Program-made: the position numbers and the translations under genes | Part shown: positions 1 through 16,822 of the stretch, one piece after another | Position numbering within the stretch: position 1 is the stretch's first letter | Layout of the letters: every line of letters starts with the position of its first letter | Notes under the pieces: model-generated | Seen by the model: the letters and a program-made list of their open reading frames with translations, nothing else | Database searches by the model: none | What the model was told of the DNA's origin: nothing | Sequence record: AP019521.1 | Strand: one strand, 5' to 3' | Length of the DNA stretch: 64,000 nt | Source: Escherichia phage KIT01

Positions 1-1286
<1,286 letters not shown>

Positions 1287-1315
1287 ACAATAAAGCATAA
1301 CCAAGAGGATTCAAA

Positions 1316-3298
1316 ATGGCTTTATTATCACCGGGCATTGAGCTCAAAGAAACGTCCGTACAGAGTACTGTCGTTCGTAACGCAACGGGTCGTGCAGCGC
1401 TGGTTGGTAAATTCCAGTGGGGCCCTGCTTTCCAGGTAACTCAGATTACTAATGAAGTTGAACTGGTCGACTTATTTGGAGGTCCTAATAACGAAGTTGC
1501 CGATTACTTCATGTCGGGTATGAACTTCCTCCAGTATGGTAACGACCTTCGTACTGTTCGTGTTGTTAACCGTGAATTCGCTAAAAACGCATCTCCGGTA
1601 GCAGGTAACGTCCAAACCACTATTACTACTGCAGGTTCTAACTATGCCGTAGGCGATAAAATTAATATCAAGCACAACCAAACTGTTGTTGAATCCGAAG
1701 GTCGTGTAACTTCAGTAGACACGGATGGTAAAATTCTATCAGTGTTTATTCCTACTGGCAAGATTATTTCTTATGCTCGTTCTCTTAACCAATATCCAGA
1801 CCTTGGGCCTGCATGGACTGCTGAAGTTACTTCAGCTTCTTCGGGTGTGTCCGGTACCATTACGGTCGGTAAAATCGTAACTGATTCCGGTATTCTATTG
1901 ACTGAAGCAGAGAACAGTGAAGAAGCTATTACCTCTCTGGAATTCCAAGCATCTCTTAAACAGTTTGGTATGCCTGGTGTAGTCGCTCTTTATCCTGGTG
2001 AAATTGGTAGTACTCTGGAAGTTGAAATTGTTTCTAAAGCGGCTTATGATGCGGGTTCTAATAAAATGTTGGATATTTATCCAAATGGCGGTACTCGTGC
2101 TTCTGTAGCTAAAGCGGTATTCAACTACGGTCCCCAGTCCGATAACCAGTATGCTATTATTGTTCGTCGTGATGGCGCAATCGTAGAATCCGTCGTACTT
2201 TCTACCAAAGAAGGCGAAAAAGACGTTTATGGTAATAACATTTATCTGGACGATTACTTTGCAAAAGGCACTTCTAATTACATCTATGCCACCTCGTTAA
2301 ACTGGCCTAAAGGCTTCAGTGGTATCATTAATCTGATGGGTGGTGTATCTGCTAACGACCAGGTTACTGCAGGTGATTTGATGCAGGGTTGGGATTTGTT
2401 TGCCGACCGTGAAGCATTACATATCAACCTTCTTATTGCAGGTGCTGTTGCCGGTGAAGGTGATGAAGTTGCTTCTACCGTCCAGAAACACGTTGTTAGT
2501 ATTGCTGATGAACGTCAGGATTGCTTGGCATTTATTTCTCCTCCTAAAGGCCTGTTGGTTAACGTTCCATTGACTCGTGCAGTAGATAATCTTATCGACT
2601 GGCGTACCGGTGCAGGTACTTTCGATACCAACAACATGAACATTAGCACCACTTATGCGGCAATTGACGGTAACTATAAATATCAGTATGACAAATATAA
2701 TGACGTAAACCGTTGGGTGCCTCTGGCCGCTGATATGGCTGGTTTGTGTGCGCGTACAGATGATGTTTCTCAGCCTTGGATGTCTCCGGCCGGTTATAAC
2801 CGTGGTCAGATTCTTAACGTTCTGAAATTGGCAATTGAACCTCGTCAAGCTCAACGTGACCGCATGTACCAAGAAGCTATTAACCCGGTTGTTGGTTTTG
2901 CTGGTGGCGATGGTTTCGTATTGTTTGGTGATAAGACTGCAACTAAAGTTCCATCTCCGATGGACCACATTAACGTTCGCCGTCTGTTCAACATGCTTAA
3001 GAAAAATATCGGTGATGCCTCTAAATATAAACTGTTTGAATTGAACGACAACTTCACTCGTTCAAGCTTCCGTATGGAAGTTTCTCAGTACTTAGATGGT
3101 ATTAAGGCACTTGGTGGGATTTATGAAGGACGTGTGGTTTGTGATACTACGGTGAACACCCCTGTGGTTATCGACCGTAACGAGTTTATTGCTAATATAT
3201 ACGTAAAACCTGCGAGATCGATAAACTACATCACGTTGAACTTCGTTGCAACGAGCACTGGTGCTGATTTTGATGAATTGATTGGACCTTTAGTATAA
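1316..3298 (+). CDS. 18: Tail sheath protein (gp18-like)
   Basis: 660-aa ORF; position after gene 17 and before tail tube gene; TATAAATA box about 30 nt upstream. Confidence 0.9.
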   Translation: MALLSPGIELKETSVQSTVVRNATGRAALVGKFQWGPAFQVTQITNEVELVDLFGGPNNEVADYFMSGMNFLQYGNDLRTVRVVNREFAKNASPVAGNVQTTITTAGSNYAVGDKINIKHNQTVVESEGRVTSVDTDGKILSVFIPTGKIISYARSLNQYPDLGPAWTAEVTSASSGVSGTITVGKIVTDSGILLTEAENSEEAITSLEFQASLKQFGMPGVVALYPGEIGSTLEVEIVSKAAYDAGSNKMLDIYPNGGTRASVAKAVFNYGPQSDNQYAIIVRRDGAIVESVVLSTKEGEKDVYGNNIYLDDYFAKGTSNYIYATSLNWPKGFSGIINLMGGVSANDQVTAGDLMQGWDLFADREALHINLLIAGAVAGEGDEVASTVQKHVVSIADERQDCLAFISPPKGLLVNVPLTRAVDNLIDWRTGAGTFDTNNMNISTTYAAIDGNYKYQYDKYNDVNRWVPLAADMAGLCARTDDVSQPWMSPAGYNRGQILNVLKLAIEPRQAQRDRMYQEAINPVVGFAGGDGFVLFGDKTATKVPSPMDHINVRRLFNMLKKNIGDASKYKLFELNDNFTRSSFRMEVSQYLDGIKALGGIYEGRVVCDTTVNTPVVIDRNEFIANIYVKPARSINYITLNFVATSTGADFDELIGPLV

Positions 3299-3423
3299 TC
3301 TATTATCCCAGGCTGTAATATAAAGAACCTAAAACCATTATACCATGAGTTTGGTTACAGCGTACATCACGTAGAATTGCGCCTGGGATTGATTATTCTT
3401 TAGGAATATGATTTATCAACTGT

Positions 3424-3431
3424 TATAAATA
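3424..3431 (+). promoter_or_regulatory. Late promoter box TATAAATA (gene 19)
   Basis: Exact TATAAATA upstream of the gene 19 start. Confidence 0.5.
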
Positions 3432-3483
3432 AATTAATCAGAACGTTCCTGGTGTGTCCAGGAACTGACTTATGAGGCATCCC

Positions 3484-3975
3484 ATGGAGTTGACAGATAT
3501 CACTCGTGCATTTGAGTCAGGTGACTTTGCACGCCCTAACCTTTTCGAAGTGGAAATTCCATTTCTTGGTAAAAACTTTAGCTTTAAATGTAAAGCAGCA
3601 CCTATGCCAGCAGGCATTGTAGAAAAAGTACCGGTTGGCTACATGAACCGTAAAATTAACGTAGCTGGTGACCGTACGTTTGATGATTGGACCATTACCA
3701 TTTATAACGATGATGCACATGACACTCGTCAAGCAATTGTTGATTGGCAGAATCTCTGTCATGGTATGACCAATGAAATTACCGGTGCAGCACCTGCAGA
3801 ATATAAGAAACAAGCAGTAGTTCGCCAGTTCCATCGTGACGGCAAGACTGTGACCAAAGAAGTTACAATTTACGGCTTATGGCCTACTAACGTTGGTGAA
3901 GTCCAGATGGATTGGGACAGTAACAACGAAGTTGAAACGTTTGAAAGTACGTTCGCTATCGATTGGTGGGAATGA
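3484..3975 (+). CDS. 19: Tail tube protein (gp19-like)
   Basis: 163 aa when started at the second ATG, which has a GAGG ribosome-binding site 6 nt upstream; sequence matches remembered T4 gp19 (ITRAFESGDFARPNLF..., ends DWWE). Confidence 0.85.
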   Translation: MELTDITRAFESGDFARPNLFEVEIPFLGKNFSFKCKAAPMPAGIVEKVPVGYMNRKINVAGDRTFDDWTITIYNDDAHDTRQAIVDWQNLCHGMTNEITGAAPAEYKKQAVVRQFHRDGKTVTKEVTIYGLWPTNVGEVQMDWDSNNEVETFESTFAIDWWE

Positions 3976-3976
3976 G

Positions 3977-3984
3977 TATAAATA
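3977..3984 (+). promoter_or_regulatory. Late promoter box TATAAATA (gene 20)
   Basis: Exact TATAAATA about 50 nt upstream of the portal ATG. Confidence 0.5.
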
Positions 3985-3992
3985 GAATTATC

Positions 3993-4010
3993 AAGGAGCT
4001 TCGGCTCCTT
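3993..4010 (+). terminator. Stem-loop aaggagc-ttcg-gctcctt after gene 19 (terminator or leader hairpin)
   Basis: 7-bp stem with UUCG tetraloop; lies between the late box and the gene 20 start. Confidence 0.4.
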
Positions 4011-4032
4011 ATCCCATTCATCGGAGACTCTA

Positions 4033-5607
4033 ATGGCAAACTTTAATACAATATTAAGTTTTCTTAAGCCATGGGCTAATGAAGACGAAAAAGAATATAA
4101 ACAACAAATTAATAACAATTTAGAGTCTGTCACCGCACCTAAGCTTGATGATGGCGCTCGCGAAATTGAGACACAAGAGCAAAATATCCCTTATAATGCT
4201 CTTATGCAACAGATGTTTGGTAGTAATGAGCCTGAAGTTAAAAATACCAGGGAACTTATTGATACCTACCGTAATTTAATGAATAACTACGAAGTCGACA
4301 ACGCTGTACAGGAAATTGTGTCTGACGCTATTGTCTATGAGGATGATAAAGAAGTAGTTGCATTGAATTTAGACGGGACAGAATTTAGTCAAGCAATTAA
4401 AGATAAAATCTTGGCTGAATTCAGTGAAGTTTTAAACCTTTTAAATTTCCAACGTAAAGGCACTGACCATTTCCAACGCTGGTATGTAGACTCAAGAATT
4501 TTCTTTCATAAAATTATAAACCCTAAAAAAATGAAAGATGGCGTACAAGAGCTTCGTCGCTTAGACCCACGCCAAGTCCAATATATTCGTGAAATCGTTA
4601 CACGTATGGAAGATGGTGTTAAAGTTGTAGACGGATATCGCGAGTTTTTCGTTTATGACACAGGTCATGAAAGTTATTGCGCTGATGGACGCATTTATTC
4701 AGCCGGGACTAAAGTTAAAATTCCTCGTGCTGCTGTGGTTTATGCACATTCTGGATTATTGGATTGTTGTGGTAAAAACATCATTGGCTATTTGCAACGT
4801 GCTATTAAGCCTGCAAACCAGCTTAAATTGATGGAAGACGCAATGGTCATCTACCGTATTACACGTGCTCCTGACCGTCGTGTGTTTTATATCGATACAG
4901 GTAATATGCCTTCACGTAAGGCTGCAGCACAAATGCAACATATCATGAACACGATGAAAAACCGTGTGGTGTATGATGCTTCGACAGGTAAAATTAAAAA
5001 CCAACAACACAATATGTCCATGACTGAAGACTATTGGTTGCAACGTCGTGACGGTAAAGCGGTAACAGAAGTTGATACAATGCCAGGTGCTACTGGTATG
5101 AGTGATATGGATGACGTTCTTTATTTCCGCACAGCACTTTACCGTGCACTGCGTATTCCAGAATCACGTATCCCTAGTGAATCTAATTCAGGAGTTATGT
5201 TTGATGCCGGTACAGCAATCACTCGTGATGAGTTGAAATTTGCTAAATGGATTCGTCAGTTACAAAACAAATTTGAAGAAATTTTCCTAGACCCGTTAAA
5301 AACAAACCTCATTCTTAAAAAGATTATTACAGAAGATGAGTGGGAAAAGGAAATAAATAATATTAAAGTTACGTTTAACCGTGATAGCTATTTCAGTGAA
5401 ATGAAAGATGCTGAAATCATGGAACGCAGAATCAATATGCTAACGATGGCTGAACCATTTATTGGTAAGTACATTTCACATCAAACGGCTATGAAAGATT
5501 TCCTCCAAATGACTGACGAAGAAATTAATCAAGAAGCTAAGCAAATTGAAGAAGAGTCTAAAGAGGCTCGTTTCCAAAACCCAGATGAAGAAGAAGAGGA
5601 TTTCTAA
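4033..5607 (+). CDS. 20: Portal vertex protein (gp20-like)
   Basis: 524-aa ORF at the T4 gene 20 position with TATAAATA upstream; acidic C-terminus. Confidence 0.9.
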
Positions 5608-5870
5608 TGGAAGATTTAATCGAAGCTATTAAATCAAACGACCTCGTAGCAGTTCGTAAAGCAGCAGGCCCGCTTATCGAATCTCGAGTAGCCGCTTTGA
5701 TTGAAGCCCGTAAAGCAGAAATTGCTCGCTCCGTTATGATTGAAGGCGAAGAAGCCGACGAAGATGACGAAGACGACAAAAAATCCGATAAAGCAGATAA
5801 GAAAGACAAAAAAGAATCTGACGATGCGGATGAAGGTGATGACAAAGACGAAGACGAGGACGACGAATAA
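5607..5870 (+). CDS. 67: Prohead core protein (gp67-like), highly acidic C-terminus
   Basis: 87-aa ORF between portal and gp68/gp21; D/E/K-rich tail; start overlaps portal stop. Confidence 0.65.
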
Positions 5871-6298
5871 TGTTCCTTATCCCTGATGATTACGAATTAA
5901 CTCTAGAAAGCGTAGAGGCTAAAATTCCAGAAGCACAGGGACGTTTTGCTGCTCTTTCTGAAGCGCTCGAGAAAAGCGATATAAATAATCTTGTAGAGAA
6001 CATGATTGCTGAAGGCGATATCGAATGTGCTATCGCTCTTGGTTCTTTAAATGAATCAATGGCTCTTAACGAATTTATCGTTAAACACGTTTCCTCTAAA
6101 GGTGTGCTTACTCGTACTAAAGATATTAAAACCCGTCAACGTAACGCATTCCAAACGACAGGTTTATCTAAAGCAAAACGCCGTCAGATTGCTCGCAAAG
6201 CATCTAAAACCAAACGTGCTAATCCATCTACTCAAGTGCGTGCTGAACGTAAGCGTAAGAAAGCCCGTTCTAAACGTAAAGCTTTTGGACTTAACTAA
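5870..6298 (+). CDS. 68: Prohead core protein (gp68-like)
   Basis: 142-aa ORF with basic C-terminus, immediately upstream of the prohead protease; ATGA-type overlap with neighbours. Confidence 0.65.
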
Positions 6299-6933
6299 TG
6301 AAACCTGAATTGCTCATCGAACATTGGGGACAACCAGGTGAAATTATCGATGGGGTTCCTATGTTGGAATCTCATGATGGAAAAAATTCTGGGCTTGCTC
6401 CCGGCCTTTATATAGAAGGCATTTTCATGCAAGCAGAGGTAGTTAACCGTAATAAACGCCTTTACCCAAAACCTATTTTGGAAAAAGCCGTTGCCGATTA
6501 TATGGCTGAACAGGTTGCTACTAAACAAGCTTTAGGAGAATTAAACCACCCACCTCGTGCTAACGTCGACCCTATGCAAGCTGCTATCATTATTGAAGAT
6601 ATGTGGTGGAAAGGTAATGATGTTTATGGACGTGCACGTATCATCGAAGGTGACCATGGCCCGGGTGATAAACTAGCCGCAAATATCCGAGCTGGCTGGG
6701 TTCCTGGTGTTAGTTCTCGCGGTCTTGGTTCTTTAACTGAAACCAATAAAGGATATAAGCGTGTAAACGAAGGTTATAAATTAACCGTCGGTGTTGATGC
6801 AGTATGGGGACCATCTGCTCCTGATGCTTATGTAACTCCAAAGCAAATTACAGAATCACAAACGGTAGAAACCGATACCAGTGCCGATGACGCCTTTATG
6901 GCTCTCGCAGAGGCCATGAAAAAAGCGTTATAA
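6298..6933 (+). CDS. 21: Prohead core protease (gp21-like)
   Basis: 211-aa ORF in the gp21 slot between gp68 and scaffold gene. Confidence 0.85.
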   Translation: MKPELLIEHWGQPGEIIDGVPMLESHDGKNSGLAPGLYIEGIFMQAEVVNRNKRLYPKPILEKAVADYMAEQVATKQALGELNHPPRANVDPMQAAIIIEDMWWKGNDVYGRARIIEGDHGPGDKLAANIRAGWVPGVSSRGLGSLTETNKGYKRVNEGYKLTVGVDAVWGPSAPDAYVTPKQITESQTVETDTSADDAFMALAEAMKKAL

Positions 6934-6936
6934 ATA
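6929..6936 (+). promoter_or_regulatory. Late promoter box TATAAATA (gene 22)
   Basis: Exact TATAAATA about 28 nt upstream of the ATG. Confidence 0.5.
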
Positions 6937-6963
6937 TTATTATCTAAACAACAGGACTACAAA

Positions 6964-7779
6964 ATGCTTAAAGAACAACTGATCGCCGAAGCACAGAATA
7001 TTGATGCTTCCGTTGCTCTTGACAGTATTTTCGAATCAGTTAATATTTCTCCGGAAGCAAAAGAAACTTTCGGCACTGTATTCGAAGCTACCGTCAAGCA
7101 ACACGCCGTGAAACTGGCTGAATCTCACATCGCTAAAATCGCTGAAAAAGCGGAAGAAGAAGTAGAGAAAAATAAAGAAGAAGCTGAAGAAAAAGCCGAT
7201 AAGAAAATCCAAGAAGCTGCCGGTCGTTTCCTTGACCACGTTGCTAAAGAATGGATGGCTGAAAACCAGCTGGCTGTTGATAAAGGTATTAAAGCCGAAC
7301 TGTTCGAATCCATGTTGATGGGTATGAAAGAACTGTTTGTTGAACACAATGTGGTTGTTCCAGAAGAAGCAGTAGATGTTGTTGCTGAAATGGAAGAAGA
7401 GCTCCAAGAGCAGAAAGATGAAACCGCTCGTCTGTTCGAAGAAGTTGGTATGCGCGATGCGTATATTAATTACGTGCAGCGTGAAGTTGCTGTTACGGAA
7501 GCAACTAAAGACCTGACTGAATCTCAAAAAGAAAAAGTTAGTTCTCTGGTAGAAGGCATGGATTATTCCGATGCATTCGGTAAAAAAATTGGCGCTATTG
7601 TTGAAATGGTTAAAGGTCAATCTGACGTTGAAAACCCAATCACCGAAGCCGCTATAAATAAAAATGTAGACGATGCTGCGGCACTGAATTACATTTCAGA
7701 AGCAGTTGAAGAAAAAGGCGCTAAGCCTACCCTGTCCTTCGCGGACCTGTCTGCAATCGCAGCATCACGAATTTCTTAA
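6964..7779 (+). CDS. 22: Prohead scaffolding core protein (gp22-like)
   Basis: 271-aa, highly charged E/K/A-rich helical protein immediately upstream of the major capsid gene. Confidence 0.85.
   Translation: MLKEQLIAEAQNIDASVALDSIFESVNISPEAKETFGTVFEATVKQHAVKLAESHIAKIAEKAEEEVEKNKEEAEEKADKKIQEAAGRFLDHVAKEWMAENQLAVDKGIKAELFESMLMGMKELFVEHNVVVPEEAVDVVAEMEEELQEQKDETARLFEEVGMRDAYINYVQREVAVTEATKDLTESQKEKVSSLVEGMDYSDAFGKKIGAIVEMVKGQSDVENPITEAAINKNVDDAAALNYISEAVEEKGAKPTLSFADLSAIAASRIS
7653..7660 (+). promoter_or_regulatory. Candidate late promoter for gene 23, inside the gene 22 3' end
   Basis: TATAAATA about 140 nt upstream of the gene 23 start. Confidence 0.4.
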
Positions 7780-7800
7780 TTTAATAAGGTTATACAACAC

Positions 7801-9360
7801 ATGAAAAAGAATGCATTAGTTCAAAAATGGTCCGCTCTGCTGGAAAACGAAGCCCTTCCTGAAATCGTGGGTGCTTCTAAACAAGCTATCATCGCTAAAA
7901 TTTTCGAAAACCAGGAGCAAGACATCCTGACTGCTCCGGAATACCGTGATGAAAAAATCTCTGAAGCATTTGGTTCTTTCCTGACCGAAGCTGAAATCGG
8001 TGGTGACCACGGTTATGATGCTACCAATATCGCAGCTGGCCAGACTTCTGGTGCTGTAACTCAGATTGGGCCGGCAGTAATGGGTATGGTTCGTCGTGCT
8101 ATTCCTCATCTGATTGCTTTTGATATTTGTGGTGTTCAGCCTCTGAATAACCCTACCGGCCAGGTATTTGCCCTTCGTGCAGTTTATGGTAAAGACCCTA
8201 TCGCTGCTGGCGCTAAAGAAGCTTTCCATCCGATGTATTCTCCGGACTCTATGTTCTCTGGTCAGGGTGCTGCTGAATCTTTCGAAGCACTGGCTGCAAG
8301 CAAAGTTCTGGAAGTTGGTAAAATTTATTCTCACTTCTTCGAAGCTACCGGTGCTGCACACTTCCAGGCTGTTGAAGCCGTAACCGTTGATGCTGCTGCT
8401 ACTGATGCCGCTAAACTGGATGTTGCTGTTACCGCTTTGATTGAAGCTGGTAAGTTGGCTGAATTGGCTGAAGGTATGGCTACTTCTATCGCTGAACTTC
8501 AGGAAGGCTTTAACGGTTCTACCGATAACCCGTGGAACGAAATGGGCTTCCGCATCGACAAACAAGTTATCGAAGCTAAATCCCGTCAGCTGAAAGCAAG
8601 CTACTCTATCGAACTGGCACAGGACCTTCGTGCAGTACACGGTATGGATGCAGATGCTGAACTGTCCGGTATCCTTGCTACCGAAATTATGCTCGAAATC
8701 AACCGTGAAGTTATCGATTGGATTAACTACTCTGCACAGGTTGGTAAATCTGGCCAGACTCAGACCGTTGGTTCTAAAGCTGGTGTGTTTGACTTCCAGG
8801 ACCCGATTGATATCCGTGGTGCTCGTTGGGCCGGTGAGAGCTTTAAAGCCCTTCTGTTCCAGATTGATAAAGAAGCAGCCGAAATCGCTCGTCAGACCGG
8901 TCGTGGTGCTGGTAACTTCATCATCGCTTCCCGTAACGTAGTTAACGTACTGGCTGCAGTTGATACTTCTGTAAGTTATGCAGCTCAAGGTCTGGGTCAA
9001 GGTTTCAACGTTGACACAACCAAAGCAGTATTTGCCGGTGTTCTTGGTGGTAAATATCGCGTTTACATCGACCAGTATGCACGTTCCGATTACTTCACCA
9101 TCGGTTATAAAGGCGCTAACGAAATGGACGCAGGTATCTACTACGCTCCGTACGTTGCACTGACCCCGCTGCGTGGTTCCGATCCGAAGAACTTCCAACC
9201 GGTAATGGGCTTCAAAACTCGTTACGGTATCGGTATCAACCCGTTCGCTGACCCGTCTGCACAGGCTCCTACCAAACGTATTCAGAGCGGTATGCCTGAC
9301 ATCGTTAACAGCCTTGGTCTGAATGGTTACTTCCGTCGCGTATATGTTAAAGGTATCTAA
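7801..9360 (+). CDS. 23: Major capsid protein (gp23-like)
   Basis: 519-aa ORF with gp23-type codon usage; followed by a strong stem-loop; paralogous to the downstream gp24-like ORF. Confidence 0.95.
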   Translation: MKKNALVQKWSALLENEALPEIVGASKQAIIAKIFENQEQDILTAPEYRDEKISEAFGSFLTEAEIGGDHGYDATNIAAGQTSGAVTQIGPAVMGMVRRAIPHLIAFDICGVQPLNNPTGQVFALRAVYGKDPIAAGAKEAFHPMYSPDSMFSGQGAAESFEALAASKVLEVGKIYSHFFEATGAAHFQAVEAVTVDAAATDAAKLDVAVTALIEAGKLAELAEGMATSIAELQEGFNGSTDNPWNEMGFRIDKQVIEAKSRQLKASYSIELAQDLRAVHGMDADAELSGILATEIMLEINREVIDWINYSAQVGKSGQTQTVGSKAGVFDFQDPIDIRGARWAGESFKALLFQIDKEAAEIARQTGRGAGNFIIASRNVVNVLAAVDTSVSYAAQGLGQGFNVDTTKAVFAGVLGGKYRVYIDQYARSDYFTIGYKGANEMDAGIYYAPYVALTPLRGSDPKNFQPVMGFKTRYGIGINPFADPSAQAPTKRIQSGMPDIVNSLGLNGYFRRVYVKGI

Positions 9361-9376
9361 GATATAACCTTATTAT

Positions 9377-9394
9377 GGGAGACTTCGGTCTCCC
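9377..9394. terminator. Stem-loop gggagac-ttcg-gtctccc after gene 23 (between convergent genes)
   Basis: 7-bp GC-rich stem with UUCG tetraloop. Confidence 0.6.
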
Positions 9395-9409
9395 ATTCTT
9401 GTTTCTGTA

Positions 9410-9676
9410 CTATGCAATCTTAACTCGGCGGTTGATGATATCACGGAAGTCAATACGATTTTCTTGGATTTTCAGCCAGTTACCAGATTTGTCTTTGGTA
9501 TGGGTAGAGTATTCACCGTTCCACCAGAAGTCAGTTTCATAAGCCAGAGCTTCGTATTTCTTAACCAATGCATTAACTGCATTACCGTTAGGATTGGTAC
9601 CGAATTTTTCTACCAGAGCTTTGATGTCTTTGTCAAGGTTAGAAAGCGTGGTACGGATAAAGTTTAATTTGTTCAT
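9410..9676 (-). CDS. Hypothetical small protein between genes 23 and 24
   Basis: Minus-strand ORF; start taken at internal ATG preceded by GAGGAGA ribosome-binding site; early-type promoter upstream at about 9706-9735. Confidence 0.45.
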   Translation of the reverse strand: MNKLNFIRTTLSNLDKDIKALVEKFGTNPNGNAVNALVKKYEALAYETDFWWNGEYSTHTKDKSGNWLKIQENRIDFRDIINRRVKIA

Positions 9677-9705
9677 TTTTAATCTCCTCATGTTTTGATA
9701 GGTCT

Positions 9706-9735
9706 ATAGTAACACGACGCTTTTTGTGTGTAAAC
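9706..9735 (-). promoter_or_regulatory. Early-type sigma70-like promoter (GTTTAC -35, about 17-18 nt spacer, TACTAT -10)
   Basis: Reverse complement reads GTTTAC-N18-TACTAT; shares the extended block tatagacctatcaa with promoters near 53.1 and 53.9 kb. Confidence 0.5.
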
Positions 9736-9741
9736 CACTTT

Positions 9742-9749
9742 TATAAATA
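9742..9749 (+). promoter_or_regulatory. Late promoter box TATAAATA (gene 24)
   Basis: Exact TATAAATA about 30 nt upstream of the ATG. Confidence 0.5.
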
Positions 9750-9778
9750 AAATTATATTCTCAATAAGGAAAATAGCA

Positions 9779-11059
9779 ATGGCTAAAATTAACGACCTTT
9801 TAAAAGAGTCGACCATTACTTCGAGTTCTTCGATTGGTCGTCCAAATTTAGTAGCTTTAACCAGAGCTACGACCAAACTTGTTTATACCGACCTTGTAGC
9901 TCAGCAGCGTACTAACCAACCTTTGGCTGCTCTATATGGTATCAAATATCTTACAGAAAAAGACGAATTATCTTTCCAGACGGGTGCTACTTATTCCGGC
10001 GCAGTATCCGCTAAAGACCGTGCCACTATCCCAGTTTTCACTGCAGGCGCTGTTTATGCTAAAGATGATTTGTTCCAATTTGAAAACGTAGTTTATAAAG
10101 CTTTGGTAGCAAGCCCATTTGCCGGTGCTACTGGTGATGAATACGAACAACTTCAAGAAGCTATTGTTAAGTTGACTATCCGTATTATGTCCGAAGCCGC
10201 ACTGACTGAGCGTTTTGAAGGTCCTCAAGAAGTAGATATCTCTGAAGCCAGATTCATCGTTAATAAATGGAACGCCCCGGTTAAATCACGTAAGTTGAAG
10301 AGTACTGTTACCGTAGAACTGGCTCAAGACCTCGAAGCAAATGGTTTCGATGCCCCTAATTTCTTGGAAGACCTCCTGGCTACTGAAATGGCTGATGAAA
10401 TCAACAAAGATATTCTTCAGTCCCTGGTTACGGTTTCCAAGCGTTATAAAGTTGAAGGTTTGTGTGATGATGGCTTAATTGACCTGAGTTATGCTAACTC
10501 ACCGGAAGCTTCTCGCAAGCTTTATGAATTGGTGTGTGAAATGGTTTCTCATATCCAGCGCGCAACCTCTTATACGGCAACTTATGTAGTAGCGAGTACT
10601 CGTGTAGCTGCTGTTCTGGCTGGTTCCGGATGGTTGAGACATACCCCACAGAACGACAAATATCTTTCTGCAAGTGCATACGGATTCCTGGAAAATGGTT
10701 TGCCTCTGTATTGTGATACCAACACGCCGATTGATTATGTTACTGTAGGTGTTAAAGAGGAATTTGGTGGGAAGGAAGCGGTAGGTTCTCTGTTCTATGC
10801 ACCGTATACCGAAGGCCTTGATTTGGCTGACCCTGAACATGTGGGTACATTTAAAGTGGTCGTTGACCCTGAAAGCCTGCAACCATCTATTGCATTAATG
10901 GTTCGTTATGCACTGGCTGCCAACCCTTATACGGTTACTGCTGATGATAAACAAGCCCGTATTATTGATGCGACTAATATGGATTTGATGGCGGGACGTT
11001 CTGATATGTCCGTATTGCTTGGTGTGAAACTTCCTAAAGTTTTGACTGAATTAAACTAA
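9779..11059 (+). CDS. 24: Capsid vertex protein (gp24-like, gp23 paralog)
   Basis: 426-aa ORF after gene 23 with TATAAATA box upstream; size and position match T4 gp24. Confidence 0.9.
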   Translation: MAKINDLLKESTITSSSSIGRPNLVALTRATTKLVYTDLVAQQRTNQPLAALYGIKYLTEKDELSFQTGATYSGAVSAKDRATIPVFTAGAVYAKDDLFQFENVVYKALVASPFAGATGDEYEQLQEAIVKLTIRIMSEAALTERFEGPQEVDISEARFIVNKWNAPVKSRKLKSTVTVELAQDLEANGFDAPNFLEDLLATEMADEINKDILQSLVTVSKRYKVEGLCDDGLIDLSYANSPEASRKLYELVCEMVSHIQRATSYTATYVVASTRVAAVLAGSGWLRHTPQNDKYLSASAYGFLENGLPLYCDTNTPIDYVTVGVKEEFGGKEAVGSLFYAPYTEGLDLADPEHVGTFKVVVDPESLQPSIALMVRYALAANPYTVTADDKQARIIDATNMDLMAGRSDMSVLLGVKLPKVLTELN

Positions 11060-11066
11060 CAAAAAA

Positions 11067-11082
11067 GGGACCTTACGGTCCC
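11067..11082. terminator. Stem-loop gggacc-ttac-ggtccc between convergent gene 24 and rnlB
   Basis: 6-bp GC stem flanked by A-run and T-run (bidirectional). Confidence 0.6.
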
Positions 11083-11090
11083 TTTATCAT

Positions 11091-12098
11091 TTATTTGGAT
11101 ACTAATTCAATCCATACGGCTCGTAAGGTATCTTTTACGCACTCAACAAGCTGCTTTTTAACTTCAACAGGATTTTCTGCGTCGGTTAATTCTAATTCTT
11201 CACGGGCAGCTTCTTCAAGGATATCCTGGACTGTCAAGCCCATTACCTTTCCAAAATCCTTCGGCGATACTTCACCAATCTTACTGATGACATTGTTAAT
11301 GCGGTTAACAGTCACATAATCAGTGAATTGCCACATCAAATCCATATCATCTTGGGATAAAACCACTGCAACTTTAATAGGCTTATCAGACTTTTTCTTC
11401 TCGCTGAATTTAGAGTTCTTACATTTAATCGCTACACGATTTCCATTAGGAAGCCAGGTAGGAACATCAGGTTTCAGTACAAAGCCTTCAGCCGTGAATA
11501 CTTTACCTTCTACCTTAGGAATAAAGTCTGTCGAGTTTGCAATAGTTAAGCCAGCGTTATCCACTGCAAAATTATAATCGGGAACAACCGAATCAAAATC
11601 ATTAGGAAGTTTAATAAGGTCTTCAAAGCTACCAGTGGCCAGACATGGAGCTACCTTAAACTTATGAATAATACAGAAGGCTTCCATCAATGTATCGGTT
11701 AGAACAGATTCAGTACCGTCTTCCTTAGTAACTCGGATATCAAACACATAAAAGTCTTTATCACCGTAGTCCACATTCTTCTGAATACCTGTCCCAGCGA
11801 ATTCGCCATAAATCTGGTACGACTGGTAATTAATCGATTCAATTAGTTGTTGAACGGATTTAATAGAATCAGCATAGTTCTTAAGTACAATTTCATAACC
11901 ATAGAAATCTTCAGCAGGGAGAATTGGGCCAGTGCGCTTGGCGCATGTGACTGCGTCACGTTCTATGATTAAACTAAAGTTGGTTCCATGAATCTTCTCA
12001 CGTGCTACCCATTCACCGCCAGTCAAACCATTAGTACGGAGTTTTTCGATAAACTTATTGTTGTAGTGGTTTTCGAGACTGCTATATTTCTTGAACAT
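11091..12098 (-). CDS. rnlB: RNA ligase 2 (Rnl2)
   Basis: 335 aa; N-terminus [19 protein letters not shown]... and nucleotidyltransferase motif KIHGTN match remembered T4 Rnl2; same position as T4 rnlB. Confidence 0.9.
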
Positions 12099-12491: not shown

Positions 12492-14054
12492 ATGGCACAA
12501 ACTACCGGTGAAAAAGAAGGCGTATTTTACGGTTATTCTCTTTATGATTTGAATAAAGAAAAACTAATAACCTTTGACGAATTACTTACAGGTATTAAAG
12601 GCGACGCTGGGGAAAATGGTGATATCGGTCCTCAAGGTCCTATTGGTTTACCTGGCCCGCAAGGTATCCAAGGTGAAGTTGGGCCTAAAGGTCCTAAAGG
12701 CGATATCGGTCTTCAGGGTATAGCAGGGCCTGCTGGTCCTCAAGGTCCACAAGGTGAACGAGGAATACAGGGCTTAACAGGACCACAAGGCCAAATAGGT
12801 ATTGCAGGGCCACAAGGCGTCAAAGGTGATACCGGTCCTCAAGGTCCTGTCGGCCCACAAGGTCCAGCAGGTGTACAAGGCGTACAAGGCGTCAAAGGTG
12901 ATACAGGTCCAGCAGGCCCTGCAGGTTTAACTTGGAAAGGAACTTGGGACTCAGCTACGGAGTATTCAATAAATGAAGCCGTAGGATATGGAGGTTCTTT
13001 GTATTTTGCTACAGAAACCGTGCCTGTCGGCGAAATCCCATCTTTAGCCTCCGACTATTGGGAAGTTTTGGCTACCGAAGGTCCAGAAGGTCCTCAAGGA
13101 CCACAAGGCATTCAGGGACCTATGGGTCCTCAGGGTATTCAAGGTCCTTTGGGTCCTGTAGGCCCGCAAGGTATCCAAGGACCAAGAGGCTTACAAGGAC
13201 CTGAAGGCGAAATAGGACCTCGTGGTTTGCAGGGGTTAAAAGGTGAAACAGGTGCTCAAGGACCGCAGGGCATTCAAGGGCTTAAAGGCGAGCCAGGGGC
13301 CCAGGGACCTGATGGTATTGGTTTAACTGGGCCTCAAGGACCAATTGGCCTTACAGGTCCAGCGGGCCCTCAGGGTATAAGAGGAGCCATAGGACCTAAA
13401 GGTGATACAGGTTTAACTGGTGCCCAAGGCGAGCAAGGTGCCCCAGGTGTTAAAGGTGATACCGGTCCTCAAGGATTACAAGGGGTTAAGGGAGATAAAG
13501 GGGATAAAGGAGATACTGGTGCCCAAGGATTACAAGGGGTTAAAGGAGATAAAGGAGACAAAGGAGATACCGCGCCTCATAATAAAGTATACTATTTAGG
13601 ACAAACCCCATGGTTCCACAACTCGTATGCTAAACATCAACTTCCAGGAACCAATGATTGGCGGATTACTGTAACAGGTACAACCAACTTTGAATCCTAT
13701 TCATCAGGTAACGTTAGAATAGGATTTTTTAATAATACTTCTGCATCCAGATCATGCACGTTTACATTGATTTCTTATGATGCTAACGGCTCACAGAAAA
13801 ATACAAAATACAATACTGTGCATAATGTTATGGTTCAAAGTTCTTATTATAAATTCTGGGGTGATAATGCCGATTCATTTATTATAGGCGGCACTTCTAA
13901 TATATGTGAAGGGTTTTTTACTGATAATGCCACCAATAAAACCTATCATATAAAATTTATAGGATTGGTCAAAGCCACAGCTACGGTACCAGGCAAATAT
14001 GTTCTTGAAGTTGAAGAGATTATTTCTGGTGGCGAACCTGTAAAATATTATTAA
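12492..14054 (+). CDS. Collagen-like repeat protein: two Gly-X-Y blocks split by a W/Y-rich module, plus a C-terminal globular domain
   Basis: 520-aa ORF; two long uninterrupted Gly-X-Y tracts (about aa 37-146 and 198-364); intervening [27 protein letters not shown]...DYWEVLA segment; AGGAAA ribosome-binding site before the ATG. Confidence 0.8.
12600..13570 (+). repeat. Gly-X-Y triplet (collagen-type) coding repeats, two tracts split by a non-repeat module
   Basis: 9-nt periodicity of GGN-NNN-NNN codons visible directly in the sequence within the 12492-14054 ORF. Confidence 0.85.
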
Positions 14055-14064
14055 TGGAGGTTGA

Positions 14065-14928
14065 ATGGAACCGGTACAAGCTATATTAGAGCCTGGCGTA
14101 ATAGATGTAGAATATGGTAATACTTATTCAGCAACAGTAACTCTAACTCCTATAGAAAATATCCCAGATGGTTCCGTGATAAGATATGATTGGGTTGTTA
14201 ATAACAAGTTTGTTGGTACGGGTGAAGCTACTCGTACCACCCAACCATCTCAGACCGGAAATTATGTGTTATCATGTAGAGTATTCATTACCCCGCCTAA
14301 TGAAAATACTGTAATGATAACAACTAATAAATCATATGGGTATGTATATAAAAATTCTGATACAAGTCCAGTAGATGCAGAAATATTATACGATAATAAA
14401 ATATACCAAATAGGGAGCAAAGTTAGATTATTAGCTACGGCTAATAACCCCGATACTAACTATGTTAAAGGTATTATATGGAAGGATGCTGACGGGAATA
14501 TAATAGGTATAGGGCGGGAATATATCCATACAATGCAATCTGAATATGATATAGTTCGTGCTAAAGTCACAATGGATTCGCCTACTAGAGATGAATTCAG
14601 TAAGAACTTTACCATACATTTATATGCTATAAATGTTCAAGAAGGAACTTGTATAAGATACATTCATCCTTTAGACCATCGGGATGCTGGATTTATCTGG
14701 TGCGGATGGTGGGTTATGGATGAAGTTCAACGAGCAGTAAAACTTGGATTGGATTGGAAAAATCCTGAAGGAACTGAGTTAAATTATAAATGTGATTTAG
14801 AAACACTGTCATTATTGCTCAAAACATATCCTGAAGCTGAAGTTCAGGAATCAAGGCACGGGCATATAATAACCAGACCGCAAATTGAGTCCGGTGAAAT
14901 ATATGAAAAGCCATATGAAGTAAAATAA
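14065..14928 (+). CDS. Hoc-like paralog: Ig-like N-terminal region plus Hoc-type capsid-binding C-terminal domain
   Basis: 287 aa; C-terminal HPLDHRDAGFIWCGWWVMDEVQ...YPEAEVQESRHGHII aligns with canonical Hoc C-terminus (HPLPVRNSAYIWCGWWVMDEIQ...YPEVDVQESRNGYIV) encoded convergently downstream; GGAGG ribosome-binding site. Confidence 0.75.
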   Translation: MEPVQAILEPGVIDVEYGNTYSATVTLTPIENIPDGSVIRYDWVVNNKFVGTGEATRTTQPSQTGNYVLSCRVFITPPNENTVMITTNKSYGYVYKNSDTSPVDAEILYDNKIYQIGSKVRLLATANNPDTNYVKGIIWKDADGNIIGIGREYIHTMQSEYDIVRAKVTMDSPTRDEFSKNFTIHLYAINVQEGTCIRYIHPLDHRDAGFIWCGWWVMDEVQRAVKLGLDWKNPEGTELNYKCDLETLSLLLKTYPEAEVQESRHGHIITRPQIESGEIYEKPYEVK

Positions 14929-14933
14929 AAAAG

Positions 14934-14949
14934 GGACCTTACGGTCCCT
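14934..14949. terminator. Stem-loop gggacc-ttac-ggtccc between Hoc-like gene and hoc (same sequence as at 11067)
   Basis: aaaaagggaccttacggtcccttttattt: identical hairpin flanked by A/T runs, shared by convergent genes. Confidence 0.6.
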
Positions 14950-14954
14950 TTTAT

Positions 14955-16085
14955 TTATGGATAGAAATAAATTATTCCTGCCTCCAATGAGGTTTTGTGT
15001 ACGATATATCCATTACGAGATTCTTGTACATCAACCTCTGGATAGTCGGTAATCATTTTTTGAAGTGTATATCGGTGCAAATAATACGGGCTATCCGGGT
15101 CATCGGTTTTCCAGTCTTTGCCTTCAAGAGTCATTTTCTGGATTTCATCCATAACCCACCATCCACACCAGATATAAGCTGAATTGCGAACTGGCAATGG
15201 ATGTACATAAGGTAATTCACCATCTGGAACTGGTGCGACTTTAGCCGTGACTGTCACATTACCGGTTTTGGTAACGGTCGCAGGGTTATAATCAGTCGCC
15301 GAAACCACAACAGAAACTTCAATAACCTGTGAACCTTCAGTGTTTGTATCGATTGCTAGAGTATCTGTGGTACCAGCAATACCAATGCCATCTTTCTTCC
15401 AAGAATAAGCAAAAGTGGCACCACTAGGCGCACCTGCTACGGTAGCTTTAAAAGAAGCCGGAGTTCCTTCAGGTACATTAATAGAGGCTGGCGTTAAATT
15501 AACAGAAACCCCAGACATTGTTTTCTTAACAAAAGAAACCGTTATGCCTTTAGCAGCAGTTGCTGAACCGTATTCCGGAGAGGTAACAGTAACTTCACAA
15601 TTCAAGGTATAATTTGCTTCGGCTGCTTCAGTTAGTGTAATAGTTTTAGAGGTTTGGCCTGAAATTACGGTGGTATTTCGTTTCCAAACATAATTAATTG
15701 TTGCATCAGCAGGAGCACCGGTTACATTAGCCGTAACAACTTGGGATTGGCCGACTTCTTTAGAAACGGAAGTAGGGTCCAAAGCCAAAGAGATATCCAT
15801 AGTTTTATTAGATACGGTAACTTCAAAGGTGTCTTCGGCTGTCTCAAGAGGGCCCGCATCGCCAGGGTCAGAAGTTACTACTACTTTTATAACTTTCTTA
15901 CCCGCAGGAGCAGCACCCGTATATCTCAAAACATTAGTGGTTTCTGGGTTAGCAGCTCCATCAACGGTCCATACATATGCAATGGTTCCCCCTGTTACAA
16001 CTGGGTCGGTTGCGGTAGCAGTGTAATTAGCGCTTTCGCCTATTTTCATAGACGCTGCGCCGGCTATACTTACAGTAAAGGCCAT
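14955..16085 (-). CDS. hoc: Highly immunogenic outer capsid protein Hoc
   Basis: 376 aa, same length as T4 Hoc; near-identical C-terminal capsid-binding region (ELPYVHPLP...IWCGWWVMDEIQKMT...DWKTDDPDS) and Ig-like repeats. Confidence 0.9.
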   Translation of the reverse strand: MAFTVSIAGAASMKIGESANYTATATDPVVTGGTIAYVWTVDGAANPETTNVLRYTGAAPAGKKVIKVVVTSDPGDAGPLETAEDTFEVTVSNKTMDISLALDPTSVSKEVGQSQVVTANVTGAPADATINYVWKRNTTVISGQTSKTITLTEAAEANYTLNCEVTVTSPEYGSATAAKGITVSFVKKTMSGVSVNLTPASINVPEGTPASFKATVAGAPSGATFAYSWKKDGIGIAGTTDTLAIDTNTEGSQVIEVSVVVSATDYNPATVTKTGNVTVTAKVAPVPDGELPYVHPLPVRNSAYIWCGWWVMDEIQKMTLEGKDWKTDDPDSPYYLHRYTLQKMITDYPEVDVQESRNGYIVHKTSLEAGIIYFYP

Positions 16086-16094
16086 AGTTTACCC

Positions 16095-16772
16095 TTATTT
16101 TAAAGTGACAAAAGATGAATTACGCGTTTCACGTACTAATACTGAGCCATTACGATTGATGTAATAAATCAGACTGAATAATGTTTGGTGGGCTGAAGGA
16201 TGTTGGAAATCTTTAGGACGTTCTTTCCAATCAGGGGTTTCAGAAATCCATTGATAAATCCACCAAGGAACAGTACAGTAACCTGGGTTTTTACCAATAA
16301 GCAAAAGATTGGGACTAAAGTTTTCAGGGAGTTCAAATTTAGGTTTTTCTGATTCTTTAACCAAGGTTATAGCTTGATTGAATTTCTCTTCGACAAACGG
16401 GACATCCTCTTCAATAATCTCTACCTTAGGAAGTTCGGCTACCTCAACGACTTCAACAACTGCCTCAGGAGCATCGAACAACAGGGTGGCTTCTTCTTTA
16501 GCCGGTTCAGCACCATCAACAAATTCGTTAGCACCATTGAGTTCGTCGGCAGCATCAATCAAATCAGAAATAGACAAACCTTCGGTTTCCGGAAGTGGTT
16601 CGTCAGCCAAGGCTTTAAGACCTTCAGTGATATTGATAATCAAATTATCAACCGAACGGGTTTTCTTAAGTTTTAAACCGAACTGTTCACCGTATTCGAT
16701 TAACTTAGCTTTAGCTTCTTTTTTATCTTCGAGTGCACGAAGCTCTTCAATATATTGATGGTCCATAATCAT
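16095..16772 (-). CDS. inh: Inhibitor of prohead protease (Inh-like)
   Basis: 225-aa ORF adjacent to hoc in the T4 inh position; acidic middle region. Confidence 0.7.
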   Translation of the reverse strand: MIMDHQYIEELRALEDKKEAKAKLIEYGEQFGLKLKKTRSVDNLIINITEGLKALADEPLPETEGLSISDLIDAADELNGANEFVDGAEPAKEEATLLFDAPEAVVEVVEVAELPKVEIIEEDVPFVEEKFNQAITLVKESEKPKFELPENFSPNLLLIGKNPGYCTVPWWIYQWISETPDWKERPKDFQHPSAHQTLFSLIYYINRNGSVLVRETRNSSFVTLK

Positions 16773-16786
16773 TCTCTTTTCTAGTG

Positions 16787-16794
16787 TATAAATA
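16787..16794 (+). promoter_or_regulatory. Late promoter box TATAAATA (uvsW)
   Basis: TATAAATA about 28 nt upstream of the uvsW ATG. Confidence 0.45.
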
Positions 16795-16822
16795 TAACTA
16801 TATTTATAACTGAGAATTACTT

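Follow-up and report, generated by a model that had tools for sequence, protein, structure and literature searches.

A stretch of 64,000 nucleotides from Escherichia phage KIT01 (record AP019521.1; hereafter the window) carries, beside the canonical gene for the head decoration protein Hoc, an intact gene for a second and shorter protein of the same family. We refer to the two proteins as Hoc1 and Hoc2, respectively. Hoc2 is probably a functional head decoration protein, the gene for which was acquired horizontally within a cassette that also encodes a collagen-like fibre, and whose C-terminal domain (C-domain) would dock at the centres of gp23* hexamers. The features on which this reading is based are collected in Table 1 and described below.

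Table 1. Features of the hoc region and of gp23 in the window
Feature	Position	Strand	Basis or remark
gp23 gene	7801-9360	+	
Hoc-binding stretch of gp23, GSKAGVFDFQDPIDIRGAR, T4 residues 326-344	8770..8826	+	presumed docking site of both Hocs
Collagen-like fibre gene, 520 aa, first in cassette	12492..14054	+	Pfam Collagen E 4e-43; PHROG tail-fibre families
Shine-Dalgarno GGAGG for Hoc2	14056..14060	+	sequence
Hoc2, short Hoc-family decoration protein, 287 aa	14065..14928	+	ORF, ATG start, intact
Hoc2 Ig-like domain 1	residues ~1-97		
Hoc2 Ig-like domain 2	residues ~100-190		
Hoc2 capsid-binding C-domain, residues 193-287	14641..14925	+	AlphaFold2 model, contact residues
Hoc2 C-domain motifs	YIHPL 14659-14673; WCGWW 14698-14712; QESRHG 14845-14862	+	
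Putative bidirectional intrinsic terminator between convergent Hoc2 and Hoc1	14929..14952	.	hairpin folding
Hoc1, canonical Hoc, 376 aa, three Ig-like domains and C-domain	14955..16085	-	PHROG 1149 E 1e-108
inh, prohead protease inhibitor	16095..16772	-	PHROG 1051 E 4e-89
T4 late promoter, consensus TATAAATA, ahead of inh-hoc1	16801..16808	-	perfect match

The Hoc2 reading frame is intact, and the peptides quoted for it and for the Hoc1 frame in an earlier note on this DNA match the translations of both ORFs. The strands confirm that the two genes are convergent, as that note had described, and they lie 26 nucleotides apart. The GGAGG sequence ahead of Hoc2 begins 1 nucleotide past the stop codon of the fibre gene and ends 4 nucleotides before the ATG. 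Hoc2 is acidic (pI 5.0), as are other Hocs. Its exact sequence appears to be new, with an exact-sequence look-up returning no identical protein on record and the nearest known proteins being 93-94% identical. The nearest protein cluster (94% identical) has a 2-kb Logan contig as its source, and the nearest annotated orthologue is VR25_197 from phage VR25 (93% amino acid and 90% nucleotide identity).

The similarity of Hoc2 to Hoc1 is far beyond chance. BLASTP aligns the two proteins with an E value of 7e-29 and 28% identity across 285 aligned positions, and their C-terminal ~105 residues are 39% identical. The C-terminal match reported in the earlier note is therefore significant. Hoc2 also matches PHROG 1149 (Hoc-like head decoration) over residues 5-280 (E 1e-54) and PHROG 21694 (E 3e-16). 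In a phmmer search against the PDB chains of T4 Hoc (5vf3, 8t1x, 8t9r and others), the E value is 2.5e-24 for 5vf3_Z, and residues 30-283 of Hoc2 align with residues 121-376 of T4 Hoc. The family assignment is based on these PHROG and PDB searches, as the Pfam copy used did not recognise the Hoc C-domain and a Pfam scan of Hoc2 yielded only a sub-threshold match to BiPBP_C.

The earlier note had taken the two N-terminal Ig-like domains to be unrelated in sequence to those of Hoc, which proved to be wrong. When searched alone, the N-terminal 192 residues match PHROG 1149 (E 5e-13, residues 5-190) and the second Ig domain of Hoc1 (E 5e-5). In domain terms, Hoc2 corresponds to a Hoc without Ig domain 1.

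Structure prediction leads to the same assignment. An AlphaFold2 model of the whole protein (mean pLDDT 86, built on a shallow alignment of 13 sequences) consists of two beta-sandwich domains followed by a C-domain with the order beta-beta-helix-helix-beta-beta-helix. A Foldseek search with the N-terminal part retrieves two-Ig receptors and the crystal structure of RB49 Hoc (3shs, E 4e-6). Modelled alone, the C-domain has a pLDDT of 89 and the beta-beta-helix-helix-beta-beta fold of the Hoc family. Its one significant match in the PDB is 8t1x_X, the C-domain of T4 Hoc on the gp23* capsomer (TM 0.83, rmsd 1.9 Å, E 2.3e-9), and all other Foldseek matches of this model in the PDB have E values above 1. 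The earlier proposal of a further member of the Hoc family, made up of two Ig-like domains and a canonical capsid-binding C-domain, is supported.

The residues of T4 Hoc that contact gp23* or shape the binding loop have been listed, together with the corresponding contact region of gp23 (T4 residues 326-344) (Fokine et al. 2023, PMC10385173). Thirteen of these 16 contact or structural residues are identical in Hoc2 (Y293, H295, H299, R300, W306, W309, W310, D313, Q354, E355, S356, R357 and G359 in T4 numbering), and the remaining three are changed (Y304F, N358H and Y360H). N358 of T4 Hoc forms a hydrogen bond with Arg344 of gp23. Because this residue and Y360 are both histidine in Hoc2, its affinity may differ from that of T4 Hoc. 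The ESRHG loop that results from N358H is also present in the Hocs of Kosakonia phage 305 and Serratia phage X20. On the capsid side, gp23 of the window is identical to that of T4 across residues 326-350, including Asp336 and Arg344. In Kosakonia phage 305 the docking stretch of gp23 has S327A as its sole change, and the locus has a single Hoc-domain gene, which carries a Hoc2-type C-domain, the canonical hoc being absent. A phage can thus have such a protein as its sole Hoc, together with a gp23 docking site that is essentially identical. A second gp24 as an alternative binding target was considered and rejected, since the number of gp24 genes, one in the window and two in some phages that carry Hoc2, shows no correlation.

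With the contact residues of Hoc2 and its site on gp23 both conserved, the most reasonable inference is that Hoc2 and Hoc1 have one site on the gp23 hexamer in common. Hoc2 most likely binds the hexamer centres and competes there with the 376-residue Hoc. After expansion of the capsid, the C-domain of Hoc2 would dock at the centre of a gp23* hexamer in the manner of T4 Hoc, with one molecule per hexamer, and the 287- and 376-residue proteins would compete for the same ~155 sites. The resulting capsids would bear fibres of two lengths and two sets of Ig surfaces, in a ratio fixed by the relative expression and affinity of the two proteins.

Hoc2 is the second gene of a cassette of ~2.5 kb that lies between gene 24.3 and hoc, on the strand opposite to hoc, and was inserted right after a conserved AAACAGGA motif. 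The cassette consists of the collagen-like fibre gene, a 10-nucleotide gap that contains the GGAGG, Hoc2 and the putative bidirectional terminator. The two genes are presumably co-transcribed. The fibre protein has a conserved N-terminus of 35 residues, two collagen tracts, a central domain rich in W and Y, and a variable C-terminal tip. Different phages share this N-terminus, which also recurs in tail-fibre proteins of Vequintavirinae, and the tip differs even from that of VR25. "Collagen-like fibre + short Hoc" cassette of Tevenvirinae is our own grouping and not a named family.

The combination of fibre gene and short Hoc is also present in phages VR5, VR7, VR25, VR26, ESCO10 and JS10, in Kosakonia phage 305, in Salmonella phage CGG4-1 and in a 173-kb metagenome contig that has three ORFs with a Hoc domain. 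The fibre gene is directly upstream of the short Hoc in VR25, VR7, JS10, Kosakonia phage 305, CGG4-1 and the locus L009 (ENA ERZ27245996 k123_278436, positions 3992-8498). Both L009 and CGG4-1 (L038/L027) have three ORFs with a Hoc C-domain at the locus, which encode a short Hoc2, a protein of ~950-980 residues and one of 197-288 residues. CGG4-1 has the annotated 'Hoc I' and 'Hoc II' as well as a third protein of 944 residues with a Hoc domain. T4 carries a single hoc, as the earlier note had stated. A tblastn census of 1161 phage records gave 1201 Hoc places; a second, separate Hoc locus occurs in at most ~3% of Hoc-bearing records, a figure that leaves uncounted tandem pairs such as that of phage Muldoon, which were merged into one place. 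With an alignment of the Hoc2 clade as query, IMG/VR yielded known isolates and ordinary Hocs, and no new members of the clade.

Comparison with T4 Hoc shows that Hoc2 shares with it the C-domain (TM 0.83, 47% identity, 13 of 16 contacts), Ig-like domains of the Hoc type, an acidic pI and an identical docking stretch in gp23. In contrast to T4 Hoc, Hoc2 has two Ig-like domains rather than three, ESRHG in place of ESRNG, and the changes Y304F and Y360H, and it is encoded beside a canonical Hoc, on the opposite strand and in an accessory cassette that has no consensus late promoter. The closest counterpart is the orthologue in the Gaprivervirus phages vB_EcoM_VR25 (VR25_197) and VR26, which likewise has 287 residues, follows a collagen-like gene and is convergent with hoc. 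However, these phages differ from the window in their backbone, in the C-terminal tip of the fibre and in the sequence of the terminator. The Hoc of Kosakonia phage 305 (QYN80355) is a Hoc2-clade protein, with 41% identity across 97% of the length, and is part of the same cassette with the ESRHG loop, although, unlike in the window, no canonical hoc is present at the locus.

The second hoc of JS10 and IME08 and 'Hoc I' of CGG4-1 resemble Hoc2 in locus, orientation and size (285-288 residues). JS10 and CGG4-1, but not IME08, also have the fibre-plus-short-Hoc gene order of the window. Their C-domains are of a third type, which is only 33-35% identical to that of Hoc2 and in which the YxHPL motif is replaced. 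In IME08, a remnant of 24 codons (MPDNPLYGHDGRG...) from a fibre gene of the JS10 type lies just upstream of the second hoc (~3060-3136), and a full-length fibre-like gene is located between gp24 and rnlB.

Second Hocs have also been described by Fokine et al. 2023 (PMC10385173) in Serratia phage Muldoon, where the short Hoc has 314 residues with two Ig domains and a C-domain, and in Enterobacter phage PG7, which has two Hoc-like proteins; according to their proposal, other ligands are displayed on the capsid by means of the C-domain. Muldoon is like the window in having a long and a shorter Hoc with a common capsid-binding domain. Unlike Hoc2, however, its short Hoc is in tandem with the long one on the same strand, has no adjoining collagen-like gene, and has a C-domain with the adjacent Hoc as its nearest relative (64%). 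This last feature suggests that the short Hoc of Muldoon arose by local duplication. A tandem paralogue of this kind was rejected for the window, where the C-domain of Hoc2 is 39% identical to that of the neighbouring Hoc and 52-60% identical to Hocs of other phages.

The recurrent proximity of fibre and short Hoc genes might be taken to mean that Hoc2 on the capsid is the attachment point or partner of a trimeric collagen-like fibre, such that the head gains collagen-like hairs and not just a second Ig fibre. The two genes are adjacent, co-oriented and 10-30 nucleotides apart (128 nucleotides in VR7) in at least four genera, and two types of fibre N-terminus co-vary with two types of short Hoc, although linkage alone accounts for this co-variation equally well. 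A conserved N-terminus combined with a variable tip is what is expected of a virion-anchored adhesin, and the Ig part has invariant positions within the Hoc2 clade. However, the VR-type fibre N-terminus recurs in Vequintavirinae proteins such as CR3 gp011, which are encoded in a tail-fibre cluster with no Hoc nearby. Moreover, the full-length fibre gene of IME08 is elsewhere, with the remnant alone preceding the second Hoc, and the short Hoc of Muldoon stands without a fibre gene. We therefore consider such a partnership unlikely. A fuller proposal, in which the short Hoc would fill a share of the hexamer centres and recruit the fibre to form a switchable and horizontally exchangeable adhesion coat on the head, with the cassette types as matched pairs, is distinctly unlikely.

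Hoc2 is under strong purifying selection. In comparison with VR25, dN/dS is 0.07 at a dS of 0.47, with little difference between the Ig part (0.06) and the C-domain (0.07). A pseudogene or decaying gene is ruled out by this ratio. A broader view is that the ORF is silent or in decay, or that its product stays outside the virion, for instance as a soluble decoy; two negative findings could be cited in its favour. No exact TATAAATA is present within 70 nucleotides upstream of the cassette, where there is only a weak sigma-70-like sequence (TTCTCA-17-TATACT). Searchable literature provided no experimental evidence for incorporation of any second Hoc into virions, no virion proteomics for any Hoc2 orthologue, and nothing usable on the second Hoc of JS10, IME08 or VR7. 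Even so, this view is very unlikely given the intact frame and strong Shine-Dalgarno sequence, the low dN/dS, and the intact orthologues in many phages, including Kosakonia phage 305, where this is the sole Hoc type. In addition, late octamers with one mismatch to the consensus are present 30-40 nucleotides before orthologous cassettes, with AATAAATA in VR25 and VR7 and CATAAATA in Kosakonia phage 305 and L009.

The conserved intergenic sequence before the cassette is also found in the cassette-free phage MX01, and therefore belongs to the backbone. In VR25 (~2325-2390) and the equivalent region of VR7, the interval from the conserved backbone motif to the fibre gene contains a short upstream ORF, MPDILERKDLLYNRHYFNKY, and the AATAAATA octamer; the window is without both.

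On the other side of the locus, inh is located 9 nucleotides upstream of Hoc1 and is probably co-transcribed with it. The C-domain of Hoc1 is 88% identical to that of T4 Hoc. The 50-nucleotide region between inh and uvsW contains back-to-back consensus TATAAATA sequences on both strands (16787-16808). Residues ~146-222 of Inh weakly resemble the capsid-binding domain of Hoc (BLASTP against Hoc1, E 0.003), and PHROGs 1051 and 1149 give reciprocal cross-matches for Inh and Hoc. This resemblance hints at a common gp23-binding module.

The 26 nucleotides between the stop codons of Hoc2 and Hoc1 form a hairpin, AAAAGGGACC-TTAC-GGTCCCTTTT, with folding energies on the two strands of -15.6 and -16.0 kcal/mol (z scores of -3.7 and -5.0, respectively). 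The hairpin looks like a bidirectional terminator because a run of U follows the stem on each strand. Its 16-nucleotide core, GGGACCTTACGGTCCC, occurs twice in direct orientation, after gp24 (11067-11082) and in the gap between Hoc2 and Hoc1 (14933-14948); 0.02 matches are expected by chance. Both copies are within stems of 22-24 nucleotides, and together they bracket rnlB, the 24.x genes and the cassette. In relatives, the core is found after gp24 only.

The backbone of the window is that of a Dhakavirus of the MX01/AnYang/WG01 type, with 97% nucleotide identity over bases 1-12000. In MX01 the gene order is gp24, rnlB, 24.3, hoc, inh and uvsW, with ~100 base pairs from 24.3 to hoc; of the backbone relatives examined MX01 is the nearest, and it has no cassette. 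The best match to the cassette is that of the Gaprivervirus phages VR25 and VR26 (82-90% nucleotide identity), and hoc1 and inh are closest to hoc and inh of IME08 (94%). The locus is a mosaic, since these three parts have their nearest relatives in different phages. The Hoc2 C-domain is 89% identical to that of VR25 Hoc2 and 52-60% identical to those of the Hocs of Kosakonia phage 305, Proteus phage Pm5461 and Serratia phages 92A1 and X20. Identity is 39-43% with Hoc1 and T4 Hoc, and 33-35% with the second Hoc of JS10 and IME08. That the C-domain is nearer to the Hocs of other lineages (52-60%) than to Hoc1 (39%) argues for Hoc2 being a different Hoc allele gained horizontally with the cassette, and not a local duplicate. 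That Hoc2 arose recently in situ by duplication of the resident hoc, followed by loss of one Ig domain and divergence, is hardly credible. It does adjoin hoc, and its Ig domains align with domains 2 and 3 of Hoc1. However, its C-domain is closer to those of Hocs from Kosakonia, Proteus and Serratia phages, the 97%-identical MX01 lacks the entire cassette, the nearest copy belongs to another genus (VR25/VR26, 90% nucleotide and 93% amino acid identity), and the GC content of Hoc2 is 0.35 versus 0.43 for hoc1.

The earlier note had implied that a second Hoc is a novelty, which does not hold. Annotated orthologues already exist: JS10 and IME08 each have two genes labelled 'hoc head outer capsid protein', VR7 and VR25 have 'similar to T4 Hoc', RefSeq uses 'Hoc-like head decoration', and CGG4-1 has 'Hoc I' and 'Hoc II'. 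Second, shorter Hocs were also treated by Fokine et al. 2023 (PMC10385173). The Hoc2 gene adds one more example of second short Hocs and no new principle. The comparison marks the hoc locus as a hot spot of recombination, at which whole Hoc alleles and the fibre-plus-Hoc cassette are swapped between genera. If Hoc2 and Hoc1 sit on the same capsid, they would form a natural mixed decoration layer, in which one site on the gp23 hexamer shows two different Ig fibres. Such a layer, if real, would bear on the adhesion of T4-like phages to mucus and cell surfaces and on the engineering of T4 Hoc for display.
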